Of a stretch of 32,927 bases of DNA, positions 8,298 through 32,927 are shown one piece after another. The stretch's first letter is position 1; every line of letters begins with the position of its first letter. Both the position numbers and the translations under genes were made by a program. The stretch is from a virus. Lineage: Duplodnaviria > Heunggongvirae > Uroviricota > Caudoviricetes. The stretch lies in the IMG/VR virus record IMGVR_UViG_2671181122_000013; one strand, written 5' to 3'. Under the pieces are notes generated by a model. The model ran no database searches, had not been told where the DNA came from, and worked only from the letters and a program-made list of their open reading frames with translations.

Positions 8298-8891
8298 CTA
8301 TTTATCCCGGTTGGCTAAGGGATGACACAATTTATTTTTTGTCACGGAGGCGGGGAATTTTTTATAGAGCGTGGACAGGCCAATATCAAAAATCAGTGCC
8401 ACGCGTTGACGTGATTCCCCTGCAGCCAACAACCGCCCGGCCTGCTCCCACTCACTCGCGGTGAGTTTCGAACGTCTGCCACCAATACGACCTTTAGCTC
8501 TGGCCGCTTCCAGTCCGGCGCGAGTCCGCTCGACAATGAGTTCTCGTTCCGTTTCAGCCAGGGCACCCATCACATGAAAGAAAAAACGTCCCATCGGCGT
8601 GCTGGTATCAATGGCATCCGTCAGGCTGCGAAAATTAACGCCGCGTTCGCGCAGTTCCTCAACCAGAATGACCAGATGCCGCATACTACGCCCCAGCCTG
8701 TCCAGCTTCCAGACCACCAGAGTGTCACCTGCTGATAATGTTCTGAGCAGTTTTTTCAGTCCCGGTCGGTCGGACTTCGTGCCGCTGATTTTATCCTCAA
8801 AAATCAGCTCACATCCTGCACACTCCAGCGCGTTACGCTGCAATTCCGTGTTCTGGTCATTTGTTGACACGCGCACATAGCCAATAAGCAT
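8298..8891 (-). CDS. Site-specific DNA invertase, serine recombinase of the Gin/Pin/Hin/Cin family (about 197 aa)
   Basis: N-terminus MLIGYVRVSTNDQNTELQRNAL with catalytic-serine context and C-terminal HTH; very similar to remembered Gin/Pin sequences. Start taken at the second ATG (8891). Confidence 0.9.
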   Translation of the reverse strand: MLIGYVRVSTNDQNTELQRNALECAGCELIFEDKISGTKSDRPGLKKLLRTLSAGDTLVVWKLDRLGRSMRHLVILVEELRERGVNFRSLTDAIDTSTPMGRFFFHVMGALAETERELIVERTRAGLEAARAKGRIGGRRSKLTASEWEQAGRLLAAGESRQRVALIFDIGLSTLYKKFPASVTKNKLCHPLANRDK

Positions 8892-8918
8892 GAGCATCCC
8901 CCTGAATAAAAACCGGAG

Positions 8919-9332
8919 ATGATGCCAGTTGCCCGTTATCTCTGCATTTTCATAAACGTTGGTTTGGGAGAAGCGGCAAAACGGGATGTGGGGACAGGGG
9001 AAAATCAGATACCGGACATGGCCTCTTTTGCCAGTGGTGATGGATGGATGAAATTACCCAACGGGAAAATCCTGCAATATGGTCGTGGTGCGGTTACGCC
9101 GACATTATCGACGCAAACAATGAGAATTACATTCAGCATCCCTTTCCCCAAAAAAGCGGACTGCGCCATGCTTACTCATTCTGGTGATGGCGGTGCGCCT
9201 TTAGGCGCTGGGCGAGGGTTCGTGATGACTGCAGAAGGCCCAACGTTAACCGGCTTTAATTCTGCTTACAGAACGTCATCAACCAGCGACACGGTATCGA
9301 TGAATTACAGTTGGTGGGCTGTTGGTGAGTAA
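8919..9332 (+). CDS. Silent alternative tail-fibre C-terminal cassette (expressed only after inversion, fused to the H constant region)
   Basis: Plus-strand ORF reading through the crossover site in frame (…NVGLGE…); shares the GLGE junction with H; ends in a tail-fibre-like C-terminus; followed by a tail-fibre assembly gene. Confidence 0.6.
   Translation: MMPVARYLCIFINVGLGEAAKRDVGTGENQIPDMASFASGDGWMKLPNGKILQYGRGAVTPTLSTQTMRITFSIPFPKKADCAMLTHSGDGGAPLGAGRGFVMTAEGPTLTGFNSAYRTSSTSDTVSMNYSWWAVGE
8947..8972. repeat. 26-bp invertase crossover site (left), TTTTCATAAACGTTGGTTTGGGAGAA
   Basis: Imperfect palindrome of the TTnnnnnAAACC/GGTTT type; 14 bp (TTGGTTTGGGAGAA) are an exact inverted repeat of 10847..10860. 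Confidence 0.75.
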
Positions 9333-9343
9333 TTTTATTCAGG

Positions 9344-9796
9344 GTGATTTATATGAACGAATATGTTTATAGCGCAAGGCATAATGCTTTTTTCCCTGTG
9401 GATATGATTGATAAATATAAATCAGAGGGATGGGATTTATCAGACGCTAAGGAAGTAAATCAAAATATTATCAGTGAGTTTATGGCTGAACCGCCACAAG
9501 GAAAAATCCGTATTGCCGGAGATGATGGGCTGCCTGCGTGGGCAGATATTCCTCCACCCACGCATGAAGAGCTTATTGAAATTACTGAATCAGAAAGACA
9601 GCTACTAATTAACCAGGCCAACGAATACATGAACAGTAAGCAATGGCCCGGTAAAGCCGCTATTGGTCGTCTGAAAGGTGAGGAACTGGCGCAATATAAT
9701 TTGTGGCTGGATTATCTGGATGCACTGGAGCTGGTTGATACCTCCAGTGCGCCAGATATTGAATGGCCTACGCCTCCGGCAGTTCAGGCCAGATGA
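9344..9796 (+). CDS. Alternative tail-fibre assembly protein (Tfa/U'-like), 150 aa
   Basis: C-terminal motif LWLDYLDALELVDTSSAPDIEWP typical of Tfa chaperones; convergent with and overlapping the 3' end of the active-orientation Tfa gene. Confidence 0.75.
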   Translation: MIYMNEYVYSARHNAFFPVDMIDKYKSEGWDLSDAKEVNQNIISEFMAEPPQGKIRIAGDDGLPAWADIPPPTHEELIEITESERQLLINQANEYMNSKQWPGKAAIGRLKGEELAQYNLWLDYLDALELVDTSSAPDIEWPTPPAVQAR

Positions 9797-10370
9797 CATC
9801 CGGCGCGGTGCTGGTATCTGTTGCCGTCACCGCGTCAATGTAATCCAGCACGGCGTTAAGTCGGGTTGTTTCTGCCTGCGTCAACTTCCGTCCGGCCTGT
9901 AATTTCAGCTGAATCAGACTAATGGAAACCATTGCTGCATCAATCAGTGACTGGCGCTGTGCTTCTGCCGCGTCTACTGCGGCGCTATGCTGTGCCTCAG
10001 TATCCGTCACCCATTTCTCACCATCCCATTTATCATATGGCGTTAACGGGGCGATAGTGGTTGTATTTTCAGGGTAATCACCCGGAGCTGTGATTTCTTT
10101 GGCGTCTCCCGTTTCGGTGTTATAGACGATTTCACCGCGATGGTCTGACACATATTCCCATGATTTTAAATCCACAGAACGGCAAATTGTATAACCAGCT
10201 TTATGTGTAACTGGTGCATCTAAACAAGAACATGCCGGGATACCGACGCCAACCGCAAGATATTCAGTTGATGTGGAAATATATTCCCGCGTTTCACCAT
10301 CATAGTTATAAACGGTAATATCCCCTGCCTTTGTAGCAACAAGTCCACTATTTAATATTGCTTTATCCAT
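9768..10370 (-). CDS. Tail-fibre assembly protein (gpG-position, Tfa family), 200 aa
   Basis: C-terminal motif LNAVLDYIDAVTATDTSTAPDVIWP; directly downstream of H on the same strand. Confidence 0.8.
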   Translation of the reverse strand: MDKAILNSGLVATKAGDITVYNYDGETREYISTSTEYLAVGVGIPACSCLDAPVTHKAGYTICRSVDLKSWEYVSDHRGEIVYNTETGDAKEITAPGDYPENTTTIAPLTPYDKWDGEKWVTDTEAQHSAAVDAAEAQRQSLIDAAMVSISLIQLKLQAGRKLTQAETTRLNAVLDYIDAVTATDTSTAPDVIWPELPEA

Positions 10371-11686
10371 TATGCTGCTCTCACGATATAGTTAAATGCA
10401 ATGCTTCTTGGTCTGTTCTCTGAGGCAGTTGGCACTACTCTTGAAGCATCAAAATTGACTAAATGAGGATTGTTTGGGGTATTTGGAATGATTGTGGTGT
10501 TACCTATCGTATTACGAAGTGCTGATTGACTTACAAAAACACCACTCGCTGTATTAAAGCTAATAGCCGCATTAGCTTCGGTTTGTCCATTACCAAATGT
10601 GCCGGTTATATTACGAATAGCATCCCCCTGAGCAGACAGAATTTCGCGCCCCGCGTCAATACCGCGCCCGTCATCCCAGCCACGAATAAACTCACCACGT
10701 AAATCAGGCAATTTATTTGTCGGATAAGCCTTTGCCAGTTCCGGGTATTCTTCAGCAGAAAAAGCGGCACCGTTGCATTTCAGCCAGCCTGTTGGCGGAG
10801 TGGCGGAAGGCCACGGAACAGGCACGCCAACGGGTAATGCCGAACCTTCTCCCAAACCAAGGTATGCAAGAAGACCGGCAACATCCTTCCCACTCAAATG
10901 AGTCAGCGTCTCATCCAGTGGCTGCTTACCTGACAGCGCATTGTTAATGGTGGTACTGAATTTCGGGTCATTGTTGATAGCTGCGGCAATTTCTTTCAGT
11001 GTGTCCAGCGTGTCAGGGGCACCGTTAATCAGAGCGGTAATAGCGGCCTGTACAAACGCAGTGGTCGCAATCCGCGTGGTGTTATTTCCTGCGGCAGGCG
11101 TCGGCGCTTTTGGTTCTCCGGTAAATGTCGGATTATGTTTCTGTGCATACTGGGTATGAGGATCCTGTGCGGCAATGTGGTTTCTCATCTGGTCATCCAC
11201 ATACAGCTTTAATTCCAGGACTTTATCATCCACGTATTTACGGGTCGCCAGTACCACCGACGGGTCGATTTTCAGCGTGATGGCTTCGGTATTCGTGACA
11301 ACCAGAATCATGCGGATAGTCTGGGTACGACCACTGCCTTCCTGCAACTGCGGTTTGTACGTTTCCGGGCAGTTCGCCACCGCAATGAGTACGCCTTCAT
11401 CATCATAAAGCCCAATCTCACGGATCCAGAATCCGCCCTCGTTCTCAGGGATGATTTGCTCCGCAATAATCTGGCTCTGGTTGTTCGGGTCAACACTCAG
11501 AAGATTCAGCGGCGCGATGCGTTTCTGGTTAATCAGTTTTGTCTGTGCCGGGTCTGGTGTCGGCAAGACACCATTCGCATCACCAACGGCCATTTGCGTC
11601 AGATTCAGCTTACTGCCGAGCATCGTCGCGTTAGCCAGCCGTGCTGCGCCCTGATTAGTCAGAATGGCGTAGTATTTCACTGTCAT
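10370..11686 (-). CDS. H: Tail fibre protein gpH, 438 aa (constant N-terminus plus currently expressed variable C-terminus)
   Basis: Position between I and the Tfa gene; shorter than the 669-aa P2 gpH, consistent with a replaced C-terminal module. Confidence 0.85.
   Translation of the reverse strand: MTVKYYAILTNQGAARLANATMLGSKLNLTQMAVGDANGVLPTPDPAQTKLINQKRIAPLNLLSVDPNNQSQIIAEQIIPENEGGFWIREIGLYDDEGVLIAVANCPETYKPQLQEGSGRTQTIRMILVVTNTEAITLKIDPSVVLATRKYVDDKVLELKLYVDDQMRNHIAAQDPHTQYAQKHNPTFTGEPKAPTPAAGNNTTRIATTAFVQAAITALINGAPDTLDTLKEIAAAINNDPKFSTTINNALSGKQPLDETLTHLSGKDVAGLLAYLGLGEGSALPVGVPVPWPSATPPTGWLKCNGAAFSAEEYPELAKAYPTNKLPDLRGEFIRGWDDGRGIDAGREILSAQGDAIRNITGTFGNGQTEANAAISFNTASGVFVSQSALRNTIGNTTIIPNTPNNPHLVNFDASRVVPTASENRPRSIAFNYIVRAA
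10847..10872. repeat. 26-bp invertase crossover site (right), inside gene H
   Basis: TTCTCCCAAACCAAGGTATGCAAGAA; inverted partner of 8947..8972; falls near H codon 271 (…AYLGLGEGS…). Confidence 0.75.
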
Positions 11687-12294
11687 GCGTTTACTCTCAG
11701 GTTATCAATTAAATGAATGGCCGAGGCCGGGAAATAATCCCCTCCGACAATAATGGCCTCCGGGGTGTAGGGATAAACCGTCAGGGCGTCGCCGTGATAG
11801 CATCCCGCACCGGCAAAAATGTTGCCGTTTGTACTTAAACTGATAGCCAGTCCCGTCAGATGGCGGCTTGCCGGTTTTGCATCAGCAACGAGGCGCTCCA
11901 GCTCCTGATACATTTCCTCGGTAATACCCTGCTCAAGCACACCAACAACGATGCGGAACGTCCCCGGCTCCTCATTGAGTTGCCACCACTCCCTCACCTC
12001 AATCAGATAGCCGAGCGGCTCCACCACACGCCGGATTGCGCCTATAGTGCCCTTATGGCAGTGAATGAAATACGCATCGCGGATAACAGCGCGTTTTGTC
12101 GCTTCCGGCCACTTATCATCCCAGCGGTCAACCGAAAATGACCACGCCAGCCACGGCAGCAGATTTGCCGGGCAGGTGTCCGGGTTCCACAGCTCACGAA
12201 TACTGACCGGCGTTTTTTCAATTTCCGCACAGGCTTTTGCGGCGGCAACTTCAAGCGGTGATGAGCCGGTCGGCAGCAAGCGCGAATTACTCAT
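11683..12294 (-). CDS. I: Baseplate protein gpI, 203 aa
   Basis: Position between J and H with translationally coupled overlaps at both ends; length differs from the 176 aa I recall for P2. Confidence 0.8.
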   Translation of the reverse strand: MSNSRLLPTGSSPLEVAAAKACAEIEKTPVSIRELWNPDTCPANLLPWLAWSFSVDRWDDKWPEATKRAVIRDAYFIHCHKGTIGAIRRVVEPLGYLIEVREWWQLNEEPGTFRIVVGVLEQGITEEMYQELERLVADAKPASRHLTGLAISLSTNGNIFAGAGCYHGDALTVYPYTPEAIIVGGDYFPASAIHLIDNLRVNA

Positions 12295-20619: not shown

Positions 20620-22392
20620 ATGACCATCACCACAGACACCACTCTTTTACACGACCCGCGTCGTCAGGCGGCGCTGCTGTACTGGCAGGGGTTTTCCGTG
20701 CCGCAGATTGCCGCCATGTTGCAGATGAAACGCCCGACGGTGCAGAGCTGGAAACAGCGCGACGGCTGGGACAGCGTTGCCCCCATCAGCCGTGTCGAAA
20801 TGAGTCTGGAAGCGCGGCTGACCCAGCTCATCATCAAACCGCAGAAAACCGGTGGTGACTTCAAGGAAATTGACCTGCTCGGACGCCAGATTGAACGACT
20901 GGCACGGGTAAACCGCTACAGTCAGACCGGCAACGAGGCAGACCTTAATCCGAACGTCGCTAACCGCAACAAAGGCGGGCGTCGCAAACCGAAAAAGAAT
21001 TTTTTCAGTGACGAGGCCATCGAAAAGCTGGAGCAGATTTTCTTTGAGCAGTCTTTCGACTATCAGTTGCACTGGTATCGCGCCGGGCTTGAGCACCGCA
21101 TCCGCGATATCCTGAAATCCCGCCAGATTGGCGCGACGTTTTATTTTTCCCGCGAGGCGCTGCTGCGTGCCCTGAAAACCGGTCATAACCAGATTTTTCT
21201 GTCGGCCAGTAAAACGCAGGCGTATGTGTTCCGCGAATACATCATCGCCTTTGCCCGTCTGGTTGACGTTGACCTGACCGGTGACCCGATTGTCCTGGGC
21301 AATAACGGCGCAAAACTGATTTTTCTCGGCACCAACTCCAACACCGCGCAGAGTCATAACGGCGACCTGTACGTCGATGAGATTTTCTGGATCCCGAATT
21401 TTCAGATACTGCGTAAGGTGGCATCAGGTATGGCCTCACAGAGTCACCTGCGCTCGACCTATTTCTCCACCCCGTCCACGCTGGCGCACGACGCCTACCC
21501 GTTCTGGTCGGGTGAACTGTTTAACCGGGGACGCGCCAGTGCCGCCGAACGCGTGGAAATCGACGTCAGTCATAACGCCCTTGCCGGTGGGCTTCTCTGT
21601 GCGGACGGCCAGTGGCGACAGATTGTCACCATTGAGGACGCCCTGAAAGGCGGCTGCACGCTGTTCGACATTGAGCAGCTCAAACGCGAAAACAGCGCCG
21701 ACGATTTTAAAAACCTGTTCATGTGTGAATTTGTTGACGACAAGGCATCGGTGTTCCCGTTCGAGGAGCTGCAACGCTGCATGGTCGACACGCTGGAAGA
21801 ATGGGAAGACTATGCGCCGTTTGCCGCCAATCCGTTCGGCTCCCGCCCGGTATGGATTGGTTACGACCCGTCACACCGTGGCGACAGCGCCGGATGCGTG
21901 GTACTGGCACCGCCGGTGGTGGCCGGTGGCAAATTCAGAATACTTGAGCGTCACCAGTGGAAAGGTATGGACTTTGCCACCCAGGCGGAATCCATCCGCA
22001 AACTCACCGAAAAATATAACGTCGAATACATCGGTATTGATGCCACCGGCCTCGGTGTCGGCGTGTTCCAGCTCGTGCGCTCGTTCTATCCCGCCGCGCG
22101 CGATATCCGCTACACGCCGGAAATGAAAACCGCAATGGTGCTCAAGGCAAAAGACGTTATCCGTCGTGGCTGTCTGGAATATGACGTCAGCGCCACCGAC
22201 ATCACCAGCTCGTTTATGGCTATCCGCAAGAGCATGACCAGCAGCGGACGCAGCGCCACCTATGAGGCCAGCCGCAGCGAGGAAGCCAGCCACGCCGACC
22301 TCGCATGGGCGACCATGCACGCCCTGTTAAATGAGCCACTCACCGCCGGTATCAGCACACCGCTGACATCCACCATTCTGGAGTTTTACTGA
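20620..22392 (+). CDS. P: Terminase large (ATPase) subunit gpP, 590 aa
   Basis: Start at MTITTDTTLLHDP gives the 590 aa of P2 gpP; divergent from O. Confidence 0.9.
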   Translation: MTITTDTTLLHDPRRQAALLYWQGFSVPQIAAMLQMKRPTVQSWKQRDGWDSVAPISRVEMSLEARLTQLIIKPQKTGGDFKEIDLLGRQIERLARVNRYSQTGNEADLNPNVANRNKGGRRKPKKNFFSDEAIEKLEQIFFEQSFDYQLHWYRAGLEHRIRDILKSRQIGATFYFSREALLRALKTGHNQIFLSASKTQAYVFREYIIAFARLVDVDLTGDPIVLGNNGAKLIFLGTNSNTAQSHNGDLYVDEIFWIPNFQILRKVASGMASQSHLRSTYFSTPSTLAHDAYPFWSGELFNRGRASAAERVEIDVSHNALAGGLLCADGQWRQIVTIEDALKGGCTLFDIEQLKRENSADDFKNLFMCEFVDDKASVFPFEELQRCMVDTLEEWEDYAPFAANPFGSRPVWIGYDPSHRGDSAGCVVLAPPVVAGGKFRILERHQWKGMDFATQAESIRKLTEKYNVEYIGIDATGLGVGVFQLVRSFYPAARDIRYTPEMKTAMVLKAKDVIRRGCLEYDVSATDITSSFMAIRKSMTSSGRSATYEASRSEEASHADLAWATMHALLNEPLTAGISTPLTSTILEFY

Positions 22393-23426
22393 TGAGCAAG
22401 AAAAAAGGGAAAACACCGCAACCTGCGGCAAAAAAAATGACCGCCAGCGCCCCGAAAATGGAGGCATTCACCTTTGGTGAGCCGGTGCCGGTACTCGACC
22501 GCCGTGACATTCTGGATTACGTCGAGTGCATCAGTAACGGCAGATGGTATGAGCCACCGGTCAGCTTTACCGGTCTGGCAAAAAGCCTGCGTGCTGCCGT
22601 GCATCACAGCTCCCCGATTTACGTCAAACGCAATATTCTGGCCTCGACATTTATCCCGCATCCGTGGCTTTCCCAGCAGGATTTCAGCCGCTTTGCGCTG
22701 GATTTTCTGGTGTTCGGTAATGCGTTTCTGGAAAAGCGTTACAGCACCACCGGTAAGGTCATCAGACTGGAAACCTCACCGGCAAAATATACCCGCCGTG
22801 GCGTGGAGGAGGATGTTTACTGGTGGGTGCCGTCCTTCAACGAGCCGACACCTTTCACGCCCGGCTCCGTGTTTCATCTGCTGGAGCCGGATATTAATCA
22901 GGAGCTGTACGGCATGCCGGAATATCTCAGCGCCCTTAACTCTGCCTGGCTGAATGAGTCAGCCACGCTGTTCCGCCGCAAGTATTACGAAAACGGCGCA
23001 CATGCCGGATACATCATGTACGTCACTGATGCCGTGCAGGATCGCAACGATATCGAAATGCTTCGCGAAAACATGGTCAAGTCGAAAGGCCGCAACAACT
23101 TTAAAAATCTGTTTCTCTATGCCCCGCAGGGAAAAGCCGACGGCATTAAAATTATCCCGCTCAGTGAAGTGGCAACGAAGGACGATTTTTTTAATATCAA
23201 AAAAGCCAGCGCCGCTGACCTGCTGGACGCGCACCGCATCCCCTTTCAGTTGATGGGCGGCAAGCCGGAGAACGTCGGGTCGCTGGGTGATATTGAGAAA
23301 GTGGCAAAGGTCTTTGTCCGCAATGAGCTTATCCCGTTACAGGACAGGATCCGCGAGATAAACGGCTGGCTCGGTCAGGAGGTCATCCGCTTTAAAAACT
23401 ACTCACTGGACACTGACAACGGCTGA
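22392..23426 (+). CDS. Q: Portal protein gpQ, 344 aa
   Basis: 344 aa equals P2 gpQ; translationally coupled to P. Confidence 0.9.
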   Translation: MSKKKGKTPQPAAKKMTASAPKMEAFTFGEPVPVLDRRDILDYVECISNGRWYEPPVSFTGLAKSLRAAVHHSSPIYVKRNILASTFIPHPWLSQQDFSRFALDFLVFGNAFLEKRYSTTGKVIRLETSPAKYTRRGVEEDVYWWVPSFNEPTPFTPGSVFHLLEPDINQELYGMPEYLSALNSAWLNESATLFRRKYYENGAHAGYIMYVTDAVQDRNDIEMLRENMVKSKGRNNFKNLFLYAPQGKADGIKIIPLSEVATKDDFFNIKKASAADLLDAHRIPFQLMGGKPENVGSLGDIEKVAKVFVRNELIPLQDRIREINGWLGQEVIRFKNYSLDTDNG

Positions 23427-23609: not shown

Positions 23610-23726
23610 CGCCCGCTTAATGGGGCGGTTTTAATGCGGGTGCATAACCACTTCTTACCCACATCAATTCTGGTCAAGCCAAGCAGTACAGCTTATGATT
23701 TCAAGATGCAAACTCATGCAGCAATG

Positions 23727-24920
23727 TTAAATTCTGCATCCATCGGTTTGAAAATGTGATCCGTTTTTCGAATTCAAACTCAACTCTGTTTGACTCTTTT
23801 GAACATTAATAGTTTTACCAGTAAGGACATCCAAAACCCCTGCAGCAACAGCCTGCGCCAATTTACAAGGCACAGCATTCCCTATCTGACGCCAAATTGA
23901 CGAATTTTTCCCCACAAAGACATAATTACTCGGGAATGTTTGAATCAAAAGAGCCTCATCTATCGTTAGTCGACGTAAACGACTAGGTACATCGTGCATA
24001 TCTTTTGGCTCACCACCATTCATTAGATGATTATGATAAGTCTCAACATAACTTGTTGAGCCATCATAAAGGTGTTCTTCATCAATAATTGGTGTCCTAT
24101 TCCCCCCCATAGAAGCAGCTATAGTTGAAGCATACCCATTCGGGTTAATTGGTCTTCCCTGCCCGTTAAACATCATTCCCGCGTAAGGTGACTTCCGTAA
24201 TACTGGCTTAGCAGCATTTGTAATCCTTGCATTACAGACTCTTGAATTGTTTGGATTACCCGCTCGCCCTAAAGGCCGAATAATCTCACCAACTGTGGGC
24301 GAAAGATATTGGTATTTTTTTATCGCCGCCTCAACTCGTTTCACATCATTTTCGGAACGAAACCCTATAAAAAACATACGTTCCCTATTCTGAGGAACGC
24401 CAAAATCTTTAGAATTCAGCACCAGCAAGGCTGAACGATAGCCTGACTTTTCAGCCATCTTAAACAGTTCACACCTAACTGGTTCAAATTTGGACAACTG
24501 TGCTAAAGCCTTAACATTCTCCATAACAAAGCATTCTGGTTGAATTATATCCACCGCCCGCATGAATGACATAACCAGCTTACTACGTGGATCATGAGCG
24601 TCCATTTTCCCTGCCACAGAAAATCCTTGGCATGGAGGCCCACCAAAAACACAACCTATATTTTTCAGCCCAGACAATTCACTTAGCATCTCATCAATAT
24701 CACCACAAAAAACAGGTGATTCATGATTAAGCTTAAATGTATCACATGCATCCTTATCTATATCATTGGCCCAAACTGTTCGGAACCCGGCATTAGAGAA
24801 ACCGACATCCATCCCTCCTGCCCCAGTAAATAAGCTCACCGCTGAAATTTTGTTCACTTCTTTAGCACCAATTATTCGATTTTGGAATAAAACCAATGAT
24901 AGGTAAGGATCGACACACAA
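23727..24920 (-). CDS. C5-cytosine DNA methyltransferase (Type II modification enzyme)
   Basis: Motif I LFTGAGGMDVGF, motif IV GGPPCQGFSVAG, motif VI FVMENVKAL, motif VIII QNRERMFFIGF, motif X IGNAVP. The ORF-track start at 24920 is a TTG codon; the real start may be the GTG near 24857, giving an MNKISAVSLFTGAGG N-terminus. Confidence 0.9.
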   Translation of the reverse strand: MCVDPYLSLVLFQNRIIGAKEVNKISAVSLFTGAGGMDVGFSNAGFRTVWANDIDKDACDTFKLNHESPVFCGDIDEMLSELSGLKNIGCVFGGPPCQGFSVAGKMDAHDPRSKLVMSFMRAVDIIQPECFVMENVKALAQLSKFEPVRCELFKMAEKSGYRSALLVLNSKDFGVPQNRERMFFIGFRSENDVKRVEAAIKKYQYLSPTVGEIIRPLGRAGNPNNSRVCNARITNAAKPVLRKSPYAGMMFNGQGRPINPNGYASTIAASMGGNRTPIIDEEHLYDGSTSYVETYHNHLMNGGEPKDMHDVPSRLRRLTIDEALLIQTFPSNYVFVGKNSSIWRQIGNAVPCKLAQAVAAGVLDVLTGKTINVQKSQTELSLNSKNGSHFQTDGCRI

Positions 24921-25210
24921 TCAATCACCTTCTAAACCACATGGCAAAACGACAACCAACTATACATGATCATAGATACAGGTGCCTAGTCCAGCTTCTC
25001 ACCAAACTACGCAAAGAAGCTTCTCTTTCGCAGTCAGAATTGGCCATTTTTCTAGGATTATCACAATCAGATATATCTAAAATCGAAAGCTTTGAAAGGC
25101 GATTAGATGCTTTAGAACTATTTGAATTATTAGAGGTGGTTGCAAGCCGATTAGGTCTACCAATGGATATCTTACTAAAGGACACCTATGAAAGTATTAG
25201 TAAATCATGA
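24896..25210 (+). CDS. Small HTH (XRE/Cro-type) protein, candidate controller (C) protein of the R-M cassette
   Basis: HTH-like segment LSQSELAIFLGLSQSDISKIE; divergent from the methyltransferase; its 3' end overlaps the downstream nuclease gene by 23 nt (translational coupling). Confidence 0.6.
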   Translation: MIGKDRHTINHLLNHMAKRQPTIHDHRYRCLVQLLTKLRKEASLSQSELAIFLGLSQSDISKIESFERRLDALELFELLEVVASRLGLPMDILLKDTYESISKS

Positions 25211-26243
25211 GCAAGCCTATAATGCAATTATAAATGCAATCAACGATGCAAAAAAATTAACTGATTACAAAACAAATAATCAATGGGTCTCCATTCAAAA
25301 TGTAATTTTAGGCACCCACCTTACATACAGATATATACTTATTACTGGTTTACTTGCAAAAGCAACAGACCCTAGAGTAAACCCTCTGGCTTTACAAGCT
25401 AATGCCCCCGTAGACGGAGCCTATGATGCAAGAAGTTTATGTCATTCGGTAATAGTAGGCAAAGTAGAAGGCCCATTTTTAGAGGGTAAGTTAGGCGCAT
25501 CAAATGAGCCATTTCTAAATAAACCTGCTCGTTACATGCTCCACTCCTCTGATAACCCTGTGCGCAGAGGAAATGATAAGGTTTTACAACAACTTTCAAT
25601 TGATATATTACATGCAGCAACAACCCAAACCTTAGCTTATGAAATGCTTGTTATTGCATTATATTTTACCCTACAGCGAACCAATAGAGTTATAACGCCG
25701 AACTCAATTAATTTTGATTTTCATAAGATTATTTATAATATTATATCTCATCCTTGTGATGGAGAAACATGCGCGATTGCTGCCGCAATTTCGTTACATT
25801 TATTAGGTGAACAAAGAGGATGGATAATAAAAGCACATCCCGTCAATCAGGCCGGTAGCTCCTCAAAAGAGATACTGGACATAGATGTATATCATGACGA
25901 TATAGTTTTCCTTTCTATAGAAGTGAAAGACAAACCATTTAATTATCAAGATGTTAATCACGCCGTTTCAAAAGCATCTGCATCCGGGATTTCAAAAGTT
26001 ATCTTCCTTAAAGGGCCAAGAGCAACAAACTTAGATATTGATGAGTCTCTTGCGATTGAGAACGCTGCGACAAAAGGTATTTCACTAAGCTTTAGTGACG
26101 TCATGACATTCACAACAACATGTTATGCGTTATCGCCACTATTAAGTAATGACAGAATAATAGATTTCATAAATAACACTTTAAAAGACATCAGAGCTAA
26201 AGATAGCACTATAGAATACATACAATCCATATTTAAAAATTAA
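25188..26243 (+). CDS. Putative restriction endonuclease (PD-(D/E)xK-like), 351 aa
   Basis: Motif …LDIDVYHDDIVFLSIEVKDK… (Asp followed by a hydrophobic strand and E-x-K); AGGA ribosome-binding site 7 nt upstream of the ATG; AT-rich; adjacent to the methyltransferase and HTH genes. Confidence 0.55.
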   Translation: MKVLVNHEQAYNAIINAINDAKKLTDYKTNNQWVSIQNVILGTHLTYRYILITGLLAKATDPRVNPLALQANAPVDGAYDARSLCHSVIVGKVEGPFLEGKLGASNEPFLNKPARYMLHSSDNPVRRGNDKVLQQLSIDILHAATTQTLAYEMLVIALYFTLQRTNRVITPNSINFDFHKIIYNIISHPCDGETCAIAAAISLHLLGEQRGWIIKAHPVNQAGSSSKEILDIDVYHDDIVFLSIEVKDKPFNYQDVNHAVSKASASGISKVIFLKGPRATNLDIDESLAIENAATKGISLSFSDVMTFTTTCYALSPLLSNDRIIDFINNTLKDIRAKDSTIEYIQSIFKN

Positions 26244-26250
26244 TACTCCC

Positions 26251-26288
26251 GGGACAATATAGTTCACAACTACGTTGTCCCTTTTAAA
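26251..26288 (+). terminator. Hairpin (GGGACAA…TTGTCCC) followed by TTTTAAAA, probable terminator of the nuclease gene
   Basis: 7-bp inverted repeat with a 17-nt loop and T-rich tail directly after the stop at 26243. Confidence 0.45.
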
Positions 26289-26336
26289 ACAGTCAAGCAA
26301 TTGCATTATATTAATTATTTACTTTTTATCACAATC

Positions 26337-28649
26337 TCATAATTCATACGCTCTCCAATCACATATAACAGGATAACTGAAGCTTCTCCCGTCGTAATTT
26401 ACAGTTGCCCCACGCGCCAGCGCCTCAAGCTCCCATCGCTGCGGCCTGATACCGTTCTGAGCAAGGTCAACGCGGATAAGGGTGATTTGCAATCGTTCAG
26501 ACCTGGTCAGTCTGGCCGATGGTGCTATTTCATGCGGTTTTAACGGGCTTCCGTTTCTTTGCTGACGGTTTGGTGTTATCAGGTCGTGTTTTAATGCGCC
26601 CCTGAGCGCCCTCACGACCTCCGGGTCATTCCATTCGATAACACCGTCATCAACCAGATTAAGCACTGCTGCGGCGTGTTCAGAAGGTGTGGGAGCCGGT
26701 AACGAAGTATCACCACTGGTGAGCTTTCCACAGTTATTGACAGGACTCCGAGGCGCGGCGATGCCGCTTTTTAAAGTCAAAGGCTCAACGACCGGAACTT
26801 TCGGCACAATGCGCCAGTCCGTCGTTCTGGTGATATGAATATGACGCGCGCCGAGATGCGGCGCGTAAATGCCGACCACTCTCTCGACTTCTTCCTCGTA
26901 CTCGTTAACGTCATCCGACGGACTACGGGCGACCCTGACAGTCTGACAATCGCGCGGGACATTTGCCCCACCCTGCGCGCTGATATACAGCGCAAAATCA
27001 CCACTGTCTGCGGCGGCGCGTGCAGCCTCGACGCGCTCGTCAAACTCATCAGCAATGCTGACGCCGCGAGGCAATTTGCGTAGTTCACGGTAAGCCCCCA
27101 TTGTCGGCAGGCCAACCGTTTTAAATTGCGGAATGCGCCACGTTGACGCCCATGCGGTAACAGCCGCGGCAGTATCTTTCAGCGGTCTGCCGGTATCGTT
27201 ATCGAGCTGCCCATCCAGTGCATAGCCGTCGATATTTTTTGAGATGTATTTCGCGATATACCCCGCAGCACCGCCCCGATTAAGATGTTTTGCCTGAAAA
27301 CGGTTTCGCGCGGCTCCTCTTTCGTCGCCATCCTCTTTGAGCGCATAGCGACGCATGATTTCGATAATCTGGTTACGCTGGCGTGGATTACAAAAAAGCA
27401 TCATATGCCAGTGCGGCGTTCCGTCGTGGTGTGGCTCGACGACTCGCAAACCGTAGACCTGTAAATCATTATCCTTGAATGCCGTGCGCATCAGGCTCCA
27501 GATACGGCAGAGATAACGCTGCGCATCCTTTGGATTAAATGCCTCATCATTCCAGCCGTGATTAAGCTGGACGGTTTTATTTTCGCCTTTTCCAACCTGA
27601 CGTGTCGGGTGATACTTTGACGGCGCGGTAAGCGTGATAAACATCCCCACATCACCCTCTGCGGCGGCGTAACGCTCAATACCGGCAATGGTGTTCATCA
27701 GCTCCATCCGGCGAATTTCAGGATTAGAAATACTGCCCATCACCTTACTGATAAGGTCGATGCGCTCGCCGGTTTCCCTGTTTTCAAGGTCACACGATTT
27801 AAGAAATTCCAGATTTGCCTGGCGGCGCGCACGCACATCACGAATGGCATGTTTACTGGCATAAGGAGAACGGTCTTTATTGACCTCCCCGACAGCTATC
27901 AGTAACGCCTCATGCCAGCGCATACGCTGGCCTTTAAGCTGATGAGTCCACCACTCATCGTTAAACAGGCGGGCAATGGCAGAATATGCCTGCCTCGTGG
28001 TCATCTGTCCTTTACGGTATTTTTTCCAGTAGAGCGGGGAAATATTGAAAGCACGTGCAGCGCCAGCAACATGACCATAGAGGTGAGCCTGCGCCTCATC
28101 CGTAAACAGCGATTCTTTTTCGCCATGTGCATCAACCCAGGCATCGCAGAGTTCCTCATACATCATGAAAAGCTGCGATGAGATACGGGCAGCAAACTTT
28201 TTCAGCTCCTTGTCATTCATTCCCGGCAGGCGCGCATAGTGGTCACGCTCTGCCAGAAACAGCAACGACGCGTCGGTGTTCATTTCATGGCGCTGATTCA
28301 CACGCTCAATGCGCGGCCATAAACGACGCTGAAAAGTGGATGTGAGGAAATAAAACCCGTGCACCGGGCTTTTATTGCGCCGGATGTAGTCATAGCGTGA
28401 AGTAAACAGCGAGCGCAAAAAGTAAGGCAGGCGGTTAATCGTGGATAAAACACCTTGCACCTGATGCATCTCGTCACGTGTAAGGGGTCTTTCGCGCCCG
28501 ACGGCCTCGCGTGGCGCGTTCCATGCATAAGCACCGGTAAACGCCTTACCGGTGCCTGCAGCAAATGCTGACGGAGGGACAAAACGCCCGGAGGCTTTAA
28601 CGGCCATATGAGCCAAAAGCCTCTGAACAACGCCTGCTGAGTTGCTCAA
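26337..28649 (-). CDS. A: Replication initiation protein gpA (rolling-circle nickase), up to 770 aa
   Basis: Size close to the 761-aa P2 gpA; last gene of the early operon; the real start may be the internal ATG at about 28607 (MAVKASGRF…). Confidence 0.85.
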   Translation of the reverse strand: MSNSAGVVQRLLAHMAVKASGRFVPPSAFAAGTGKAFTGAYAWNAPREAVGRERPLTRDEMHQVQGVLSTINRLPYFLRSLFTSRYDYIRRNKSPVHGFYFLTSTFQRRLWPRIERVNQRHEMNTDASLLFLAERDHYARLPGMNDKELKKFAARISSQLFMMYEELCDAWVDAHGEKESLFTDEAQAHLYGHVAGAARAFNISPLYWKKYRKGQMTTRQAYSAIARLFNDEWWTHQLKGQRMRWHEALLIAVGEVNKDRSPYASKHAIRDVRARRQANLEFLKSCDLENRETGERIDLISKVMGSISNPEIRRMELMNTIAGIERYAAAEGDVGMFITLTAPSKYHPTRQVGKGENKTVQLNHGWNDEAFNPKDAQRYLCRIWSLMRTAFKDNDLQVYGLRVVEPHHDGTPHWHMMLFCNPRQRNQIIEIMRRYALKEDGDERGAARNRFQAKHLNRGGAAGYIAKYISKNIDGYALDGQLDNDTGRPLKDTAAAVTAWASTWRIPQFKTVGLPTMGAYRELRKLPRGVSIADEFDERVEAARAAADSGDFALYISAQGGANVPRDCQTVRVARSPSDDVNEYEEEVERVVGIYAPHLGARHIHITRTTDWRIVPKVPVVEPLTLKSGIAAPRSPVNNCGKLTSGDTSLPAPTPSEHAAAVLNLVDDGVIEWNDPEVVRALRGALKHDLITPNRQQRNGSPLKPHEIAPSARLTRSERLQITLIRVDLAQNGIRPQRWELEALARGATVNYDGRSFSYPVICDWRAYEL

Positions 28650-30183: not shown

Positions 30184-30374
30184 TTCCAGACCCTCCGGCT
30201 TTTCAGAAAGGTCAGAGTCTTTTTTAACGGACTCTGTTTTTTGGTGCGGATAATGATTCCCTTACGCCCCTTACCGTGGGTGATGGTGAAGTCAATCGCC
30301 CTGGGGCTTTCGTTACGCAATAACTGAGCAATACAACGAGGCTCATTCATACGGTTCTCCTTAACGTGGTTCAC
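30180..30374 (-). CDS. Small early-operon protein (P2 orf78 position), 64 aa
   Basis: Located between cox and B; overlaps both. Confidence 0.5.
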   Translation of the reverse strand: MNHVKENRMNEPRCIAQLLRNESPRAIDFTITHGKGRKGIIIRTKKQSPLKKTLTFLKSRRVWK

Positions 30375-30636
30375 CGAGACCTAACCACATCAACCAGCCG
30401 TCACGAATCTCTTTAGGACGGCTTTCATAAGCCAGTTTTAGTCCGTTATTCCATGCCGGAAGGTATACCCAATATTCACCAGCACGCCCCGATACTGACT
30501 GAGGGTCAGTAATCTCAATAACTGGTAATTTCCCTTTCTCAATCATGCCCCTTACAGCTCTTGGAGTTTTACCAATGAGTTTTGCAAACTCCTGATAAGG
30601 CACGGCATCAGTCACGCTTACAAGCTGTCTATTCAT
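30361..30636 (-). CDS. cox: Cox, excision directionality factor and Pc repressor, 91 aa
   Basis: 91 aa equals P2 Cox; first gene of the early operon, divergent from C. Confidence 0.85.
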   Translation of the reverse strand: MNRQLVSVTDAVPYQEFAKLIGKTPRAVRGMIEKGKLPVIEITDPQSVSGRAGEYWVYLPAWNNGLKLAYESRPKEIRDGWLMWLGLGEPR

Positions 30637-30757
30637 CTGCTACGATTCTCCCTTAGTGCTTCTAATGGCTCCTAATGGCTAATTATTGCCTAAAAGGATA
30701 ACTCCAGAAGCACAACATTTCACACTATCAGCAAGAAATTACGCAATCGGAGTAATT
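30637..30757. promoter_or_regulatory. Immunity switch region (Pe/Pc promoters and operators) with tandem 10-bp repeats at 30651..30680
   Basis: 121-bp intergenic region between divergent cox and C; repeats CCTTAGTGCT / TCTAATGGCT / CCTAATGGCT at 10-bp phasing; GGAG ribosome-binding site 5 nt before the C start. Confidence 0.6.
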
Positions 30758-31057
30758 ATGTCAATAGACGTTTCGGAGAAGTTGAAGCTAATCCGTGAAT
30801 CTGAAAGGTTAAACCGTAAAGAATTCAGTGAATTAACTGGTGTAGCCTACAGCTCACTTTCGAGCTATGAGAGCCGGTCAAAAAACGCTGGAGTTGAAGC
30901 CATAATGAAGGTCTTACAACATCCCAGATTTACTAAATATACTTTGTGGTTCATGACTGATCAGGTAGCTCCAGAAGCCGGGCAAATTGCGCCCGCTCTC
31001 GCACACTTTGGGCAAAACGAAACAACGTCGCCCCACTCCGGTCAAAAGACTGGTTAA
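30758..31057 (+). CDS. C: Immunity repressor C, 99 aa
   Basis: Start at the internal ATG (MSIDVSEKLKL…) gives the 99 aa of P2 C; HTH-like N-terminal region; upstream of int. Confidence 0.8.
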   Translation: MSIDVSEKLKLIRESERLNRKEFSELTGVAYSSLSSYESRSKNAGVEAIMKVLQHPRFTKYTLWFMTDQVAPEAGQIAPALAHFGQNETTSPHSGQKTG

Positions 31058-31172
31058 CAATTTATCGTGAATATATTCATCACAAGTGCCTACTATTGGT
31101 GGCTAAATTTCAGCCACCACGAAAAAAGCGATTAGTAGTAGCAAAAAAAAGTACCACTCGGAGGGTTTTCTG

Positions 31173-32198
31173 ATGGCAATCAAAAAACTCGATGATGGTC
31201 GATATGAAGTGGACATCCGCCCTACTGGACGTAACGGAAAACGCATCCGTAGGAAGTTTGATAAGAAAAGCGAAGCTGTCGCTTTCGAAAAATACACGTT
31301 GTACAACCACCACAATAAAGAATGGCTATCAAAACCAACAGACAAACGACGTCTGTCGGAACTGACACAGATCTGGTGGGATTTAAAGGGTAAACACGAA
31401 GAGCATGGGAAATCTAATCTTGGAAAAATTGAAATCTTCACAAAAATAACGAATGACCCATGCGCATTTCAAATCACGAAATCCCTTATCAGCCAGTACT
31501 GCGCCACCCGAAGAAGTCAGGGTATTAAACCTTCGAGTATCAATCGTGATTTAACATGTATTAGCGGCATGTTTACAGCCCTGATTGAAGCGGAGTTATT
31601 CTTTGGTGAGCACCCTATCAGAGGGACAAAGAGGCTTAAGGAGGAAAAACCAGAAACAGGCTATCTCACACAGGAAGAAATTGCCTTACTGCTTGCAGCA
31701 CTTGACGGCGACAACAAAAAGATTGCGATTCTTTGCCTGAGTACAGGAGCACGTTGGGGAGAAGCAGCTCGTTTGAAAGCAGAAAATATCATCCATAACC
31801 GCGTCACGTTTGTTAAAACGAAAACAAACAAACCACGCACCGTCCCGATCTCAGAGGCTGTTGCCAAAATGATCGCGGATAACAAACGAGGTTTTTTATT
31901 CCCTGATGCTGATTACCCTCGCTTCAGACGAACAATGAAAGCAATAAAACCGGATTTGCCAACGGGGCAAGCCACACATGCACTAAGGCACAGCTTTGCC
32001 ACTCATTTCATGATTAATGGAGGAAGTATTATCACGCTACAACGGATACTAGGTCACACGCGAATTGAGCAAACTATGGTTTACGCTCATTTTGCGCCAG
32101 AGTACCTTCAGGACGCCATTTCTCTTAATCCGCTAAGAGGTGGTACTGAAGCCGAGAGTGTCCACAGTAGAGTAACGTTTAAGGGCTTTCAGTGGTAA
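31173..32198 (+). CDS. int: Tyrosine integrase, 341 aa
   Basis: C-terminal catalytic region with HALRHSFATH…LGHTRIEQTMVYAH (Arg-His-Arg-Tyr context); sits next to the att core. Confidence 0.9.
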   Translation: MAIKKLDDGRYEVDIRPTGRNGKRIRRKFDKKSEAVAFEKYTLYNHHNKEWLSKPTDKRRLSELTQIWWDLKGKHEEHGKSNLGKIEIFTKITNDPCAFQITKSLISQYCATRRSQGIKPSSINRDLTCISGMFTALIEAELFFGEHPIRGTKRLKEEKPETGYLTQEEIALLLAALDGDNKKIAILCLSTGARWGEAARLKAENIIHNRVTFVKTKTNKPRTVPISEAVAKMIADNKRGFLFPDADYPRFRRTMKAIKPDLPTGQATHALRHSFATHFMINGGSIITLQRILGHTRIEQTMVYAHFAPEYLQDAISLNPLRGGTEAESVHSRVTFKGFQW

Positions 32199-32609: not shown

Positions 32610-32927
32610 TCACTCTCCACATTTGAATGTCAGACGAGCGACGCCATGTAATCCTGCACCTTCTGTCTTCAGGTCAACTATCTGCATTTTTTTGCCCTGA
32701 GTAACACAGAAATGAGTTGCATCATTTTTTACTATATTTTCTGCACCAGATATTCTACCCCTGGCTAAAGAAGCTTCGGCTTCGGTGTAGTATTGGTTAT
32801 CGAGTTTACGCTGAATATTACTTTTATATGCAAGGCCAATTTTACCGATACTTGTCTCATCATTATGCACAGCACAACCAGACATAAGAAAAACACTAAT
32901 TAATGATATAGCAGCTATCTTTTTCAC
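32610..32927 (-). CDS. yegR: Host lipoprotein, YegR-like (105 aa as tracked); start coincides with the window edge (GTG), may be truncated
   Basis: Signal peptide with lipobox LMSGC; position on the int side of the prophage matches K-12 yegR beyond the ogrK/yegZ remnant; name assigned from context and partial recollection. Confidence 0.5.
   Translation of the reverse strand: MKKIAAISLISVFLMSGCAVHNDETSIGKIGLAYKSNIQRKLDNQYYTEAEASLARGRISGAENIVKNDATHFCVTQGKKMQIVDLKTEGAGLHGVARLTFKCGE

Follow-up and report, generated by a model that had tools for sequence, protein, structure and literature searches.

The window, a 32,927-nucleotide stretch catalogued as IMG/VR record IMGVR_UViG_2671181122_000013, carries a P2-like prophage of E. 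coli with host genes at either end: to the left a peptidase-U32 gene (1-1362), which we take to be yegQ, and to the right a gene for a small lipoprotein (32610-32927). The prophage presumably occupies locI, the attachment site of P2. Between the P2-like portal gene (Q, 22392-23426) and the gene for the gpA replication endonuclease (26337-28649, minus strand) lies a cargo cassette of about 2.7 kb (23662-26366) that encodes a complete restriction-modification system: a C5 cytosine DNA methyltransferase (ecoT38IM, 23727-24857, minus strand), a small control (C) protein (ecoT38IC, 24941-25210, plus strand), and a restriction endonuclease (an ecoT38IR allele, 25188-26243, plus strand).

The cassette stands out from the prophage backbone in both composition and distribution. 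The nuclease gene is 35.4% GC and the three genes together are 38.5%, with dips of 36-44%, compared with 55% for the backbone to the left; the first-pass annotation had put the local value at about 25%, which describes only a single 100-nt stretch near position 26138 that drops to 24%. When the window was compared with four P2-like phage genomes, the cassette was the sole internal block without a match, save for a 245-nt stretch in the tail-fibre region (10402-10646), and the rest of the window matched at approximately 96%. That short stretch, missing from all four genomes, lies within a variable tail-fibre block (8331-11857) that is missing from two of them. The Cox/repressor/integrase end of the prophage (30361-32198) also has no match in the four reference genomes, which suggests that its immunity and integrase may be of a different type. 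None of the genomes in the phage collection that we searched carries the cassette, and only the P2 flanks match. In the related P2-like phages the slot between Q and A is occupied by other cargo, such as genes for cytolethal distending toxin or a DUF4238 gene.

The nuclease open reading frame begins with ATG, encodes 351 amino acids, and was confirmed as full length, with neither frameshifts nor premature stops. A phmmer search of the PDB aligned residues 1-351 of the product with residues 1-351 of 7e8r_A, entitled 'EcoT38I restriction endonuclease' (E value 2.1e-233), and this is the single PDB match found by sequence. The two proteins (7e8r/7edb and the window protein) are identical at 349 of 351 positions (99.4%), differing only by alanine for valine at residue 13 and isoleucine for valine at residue 298, both of which are conservative substitutions. 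The Pfam search that the first-pass annotation had proposed returned PF09566 (RE_SacI) at 256.2 bits, far over the curated cut-off of 19.3 bits, with residues 4-277 covering positions 4-276 of the 276-position profile; NCBIfam has no model that matches the nuclease. The exact protein sequence was found on 16 contigs, and a 2.9-kb segment of the locus is present at 99% identity or above in 20 of 5,426 complete Escherichia coli genomes, where RefSeq labels the three products as DNA cytosine methyltransferase, HTH protein, and 'restriction endonuclease, SacI family'.

A rare-codon table in PMC6456624 provides a further point of comparison, listing AUA as codon 15 of the EcoT38I nuclease and GGG as codons 12 and 15 of its methylase. 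The window genes agree with this table: codon 15 of the nuclease gene is AUA, both of the methylase codons are GGG if that gene is taken to begin at GTG 24857, and it is because these two codons then fit that we have placed the methylase start there.

Taken together, the 25188-26243 open reading frame is almost certainly an R.EcoT38I allele; the enzyme is a SacI-family restriction endonuclease of Type IIP. Its identification as a candidate restriction endonuclease therefore stands, and of the two options that had been left for it, a known enzyme or a new specificity, it is the known enzyme that is found, and it has a named family. R.EcoT38I has already been named, purified, and crystallised, and its genomic position is published; a literature search for PDB code 7e8r gave just methods papers that use the structure as a test case. 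Nothing that we found contradicts the EcoT38I identification, and the A13/I298 allele is predicted to be active. R.EcoT38I is reportedly a homodimer that cuts GRGCY^C, a specificity also given in REBASE, and M.EcoT38I is said to methylate the inner cytosine of the site. SacI cuts GAGCT^C, one of the sequences covered by the degenerate EcoT38I site.

The methyltransferase gene encodes 376 amino acids from the GTG start, and the product matches PF00145 (E value 1.4e-66) and TIGR00675. Over its first 363 residues it is identical to UniProt Q83VT0, an entry assigned to Peduovirus P2. At the position of the usual stop codon (23766-23768, as in NCTC10973 and Q83VT0) the window has a lysine codon, position 23768 being T rather than A, and this adds thirteen C-terminal residues, KNGSHFQTDGCRI (window 23727-23768, minus strand). 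The extended form, of 397 or 376 amino acids, is common and was found on at least 183 contigs. The methylase and nuclease genes are separated by 330 nt (24858-25187), and the interval in the characterised system is reportedly 330 nt as well.

The C gene encodes an 89-residue Xre-type helix-turn-helix protein (PF01381, HTH_3), the same length as the RefSeq form in NCTC10973. The open reading frame as called mechanically extends further upstream, to an ATG at 24896, but in the relative from Enterobacter ludwigii the counterpart of this codon is not in frame, whereas ATGGCAAAA at 24941 is conserved; the 89-residue form beginning at 24941 is therefore the likely product, and ATG 24896 is probably not the true start. 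The C stop codon (TGA, 25208-25210) lies beyond the nuclease ATG at 25188, giving a 23-nt overlap of the two genes, and an AAGGA Shine-Dalgarno-like sequence is found 5 nt before that ATG. The nuclease gene had been described as translationally coupled to the upstream helix-turn-helix gene; the overlap is plainly there, and the coupling itself is presumed.

The methylase-C intergenic region contains a palindrome, TATTC-N7-GAATA (24873-24889), some 50 nt before the start codon of the C gene. Its arms are 5 bp long; a default repeat finder missed it, and it was seen only on aligning related loci, where it is the best-conserved intergenic block among five related cassettes. In the most distant of these, from Pseudoalteromonas, both arms are changed, to TATGC-N7-GCATA, with the symmetry kept. 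We therefore regard the palindrome as a candidate C-box, the putative operator of the C protein, with these five sequences as its support. Immediately upstream of it, as read from the methylase gene, a consensus scan finds a promoter-like site, TTGATT-17-TATCAT (24896-24924, minus strand), a consensus match whose -10 hexamer falls within the conserved block CATGATAGGTAA. C.EcoT38I is one of the C proteins that PMC2632904 lists as having predicted operators.

The first-pass annotation had pointed to a PD-(D/E)xK core, D-I-D followed by E-V-K, in the C-terminal half of the nuclease. The D…E-x-K letter pattern is by itself weak evidence. The motif occupies codons 231-247 (25878-25928, plus strand), with D231-I-D233 followed 12 residues on by E245-V-K247 and then by D248-K249, and D231, D233, E245, and K247 show no variation in an alignment of 38 homologues that are 38-79% identical to the query; E193, E228, D248, and K249 are likewise invariant. 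The window protein retains all 48 of the residues that are invariant in the family, which are shared with the 38 homologues in both of its domains. Two similar stretches are also present, a second D-I-D at residues 283-285 and an E-G-K at residues 99-101, and neither is conserved.

An AlphaFold2 model built from the homologue alignment has a mean pLDDT of 92 and consists of a helical N-terminal domain (approximately residues 1-190) and a C-terminal PD-(D/E)xK nuclease domain (approximately residues 193-351). The modelled core, at residues 193-275, comprises a helix (193-210), three strands (212-216, 232-236, and 239-247), a second helix (253-265), and a fourth strand (270-275), and this alpha-beta-beta-beta-alpha-beta order is that of the PD-(D/E)xK core fold. 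The aspartates open strand 2 and the E-x-K closes strand 3, so the check by structure prediction that had been suggested for a nuclease-like fold came out in favour of the motif. After 7e8r itself, the nearest solved structures are PD-(D/E)xK nucleases. Because the motif is invariant among the 38 homologues and sits on core strands 2 and 3 of a confidently predicted model, we judge it to be the real active site, and assignment of the protein as a PD-(D/E)xK Type II restriction endonuclease is supported by the model. The acidic residues of the motif would hold Mg2+, with D231 and/or D233 as predicted metal ligand, and K247 would orient the nucleophilic water, in the manner of other PD-(D/E)xK enzymes. 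The nuclease domains of FokI, BspD6I, NgoMIV, Cfr10I, and SgrAI share 8-13% sequence identity with the window protein, and none of these five enzymes has an equivalent of the helical N-terminal domain found in the SacI family.

The SacI family is large, with 1,419 proteins recovered at E values of 0.001 or below, and PF09566 is present in all of the best 120 of these; the window protein belongs with them through its full-length profile match and the family-invariant residues that it shares. The order of methylase (minus strand), C (plus), and nuclease (plus), together with the overlap of the C and nuclease genes, is kept in four relatives, from Enterobacter, Pseudescherichia, Yersinia, and Pseudoalteromonas. 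The Yersinia aldovae cassette (60% identical; L010, 2575-6574) adjoins P2-like ogr, gpD, and gpU genes and so occupies a different P2-like slot, the Pseudescherichia cassette (64% identical; L009, 211-5053) is separated from a peptidase-U32 (yegQ-like) gene by about 1 kb that contains no phage genes, the Pseudoalteromonas cassette adjoins resolvase and recombinase genes, and the Enterobacter ludwigii cassette is within a chromosomal island. The occurrence of the four relatives in such unrelated contexts argues that the three genes move as a unit.

The window locus corresponds closely to the R.EcoT38I system of E. coli TH38, with which it shares 349 of the 351 nuclease residues, a divergently oriented methylase gene, and a C gene that overlaps the nuclease gene. 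It differs in having A13 and I298 in the nuclease and the 13 extra residues in the methylase. The TH38 cassette reportedly occupies the same Q-A position in P2-like prophage, with the same methylase-nuclease spacing. Judged against the four P2-like genomes the window prophage looks complete, whereas the title of Kita et al. 2003 (J Bacteriol 185:2296), which places the EcoT38I genes on P2-like prophage, describes the TH38 prophages as defective.

Could the nuclease gene nevertheless be inactive here, a decaying or silenced EcoT38I-like gene beside an orphan methylase on a prophage? Damaged copies of the cassette do exist in some genomes, such as FORC_082, where the methylase annotation is split in two, and the methylase allele in the window differs at its stop codon. 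Many truncated nuclease fragments are also present in databases, but most of these are marked 'partial' and so are probably contig ends. Against decay, the nuclease reading frame is full length, its family-invariant residues are all in place, it departs from the crystallised enzyme only at V13A and V298I, the C and methylase genes are intact too, and the exact nuclease sequence recurs on the 16 contigs noted above. We consider inactivity very unlikely.

The differences from TH38 could also be read as marking an allele unlike the characterised system, in which A13/I298 or the thirteen additional methylase residues shift the balance or the specificity of nuclease and methylase, the read-through methylase then being a widespread, functionally distinct, and undescribed variant; we give this even less credence than loss of activity. 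Least credible of all is a shift of specificity, in which this member of the SacI family has moved off GRGCYC to a new site, for although the family holds at least two specificities (GAGCT^C for SacI and GRGCY^C for EcoT38I) and specificity can therefore change within it, there are just two conservative substitutions relative to crystallised EcoT38I, the methylase is identical over the published 363 residues, and a changed nuclease beside an unchanged methylase would kill the host.

Counts of the recognition site were also compared. The 32.9-kb window has a single GRGCYC site (1117-1122, in a host gene) and the prophage has none, compared with expectations for the window of about 30 from dinucleotide shuffles and 17 from a third-order Markov model. 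Avoidance of the site was considered as a sign of the enzyme acting on the prophage and was rejected, as the depletion is equal in P2-like phages without the cassette, which have 0-5 sites each, and in the E. coli chromosome, where 50-kb samples have 4 and 8 sites (8 in K-12) versus 42-86 for three GC-matched control patterns, GRCGYC, CRGCYG, and GYGCRC (42-72 in K-12). Because cassette-free phages and K-12 are equally depleted, the scarcity of GRGCYC is a lineage-wide trait of E. coli and its P2-like phages. A different hexamer, RGGCCY, is rare in the P2-like phages and in the window, at 1-4 per approximately 30 kb versus 17-20 per 50 kb of E. coli chromosome, and depletion of this pattern is phage-specific.

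With R.EcoT38I as the nuclease, the arrangement of the cassette suggests how it may be regulated. C.EcoT38I reportedly activates expression of the nuclease and represses that of the methylase. The cassette resembles the C-controlled systems PvuII, BamHI, EcoRV, EcoO109I, and Esp1396I in having a small Xre-type helix-turn-helix gene upstream of, and overlapping, the nuclease gene and a conserved palindrome upstream of the C gene, but the candidate operator in the window is a single palindrome, whereas the PvuII type has a double box. A C dimer would bind TATTC-N7-GAATA, which follows the putative methylase promoter and precedes that of the C and nuclease genes, and when bound could block methylase transcription and activate the C/nuclease promoter. 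With an operator between the two promoters and control by C, the methylase would therefore be made first in a new host and the nuclease only once C has accumulated, a delay in nuclease appearance that is typical of C-controlled systems.

The practical gain from these findings is one of annotation, in that R.EcoT38I (GRGCY^C) can replace 'SacI-family endonuclease' or candidate restriction enzyme of unknown specificity as the label of the gene, and beyond correct annotation the significance is small. The locus is a textbook restriction-modification system carried as cargo in the variable Q-A slot of P2-like phages, where it would defend the host of the prophage from unmethylated incoming DNA, and may also stabilise the prophage by post-segregational killing.
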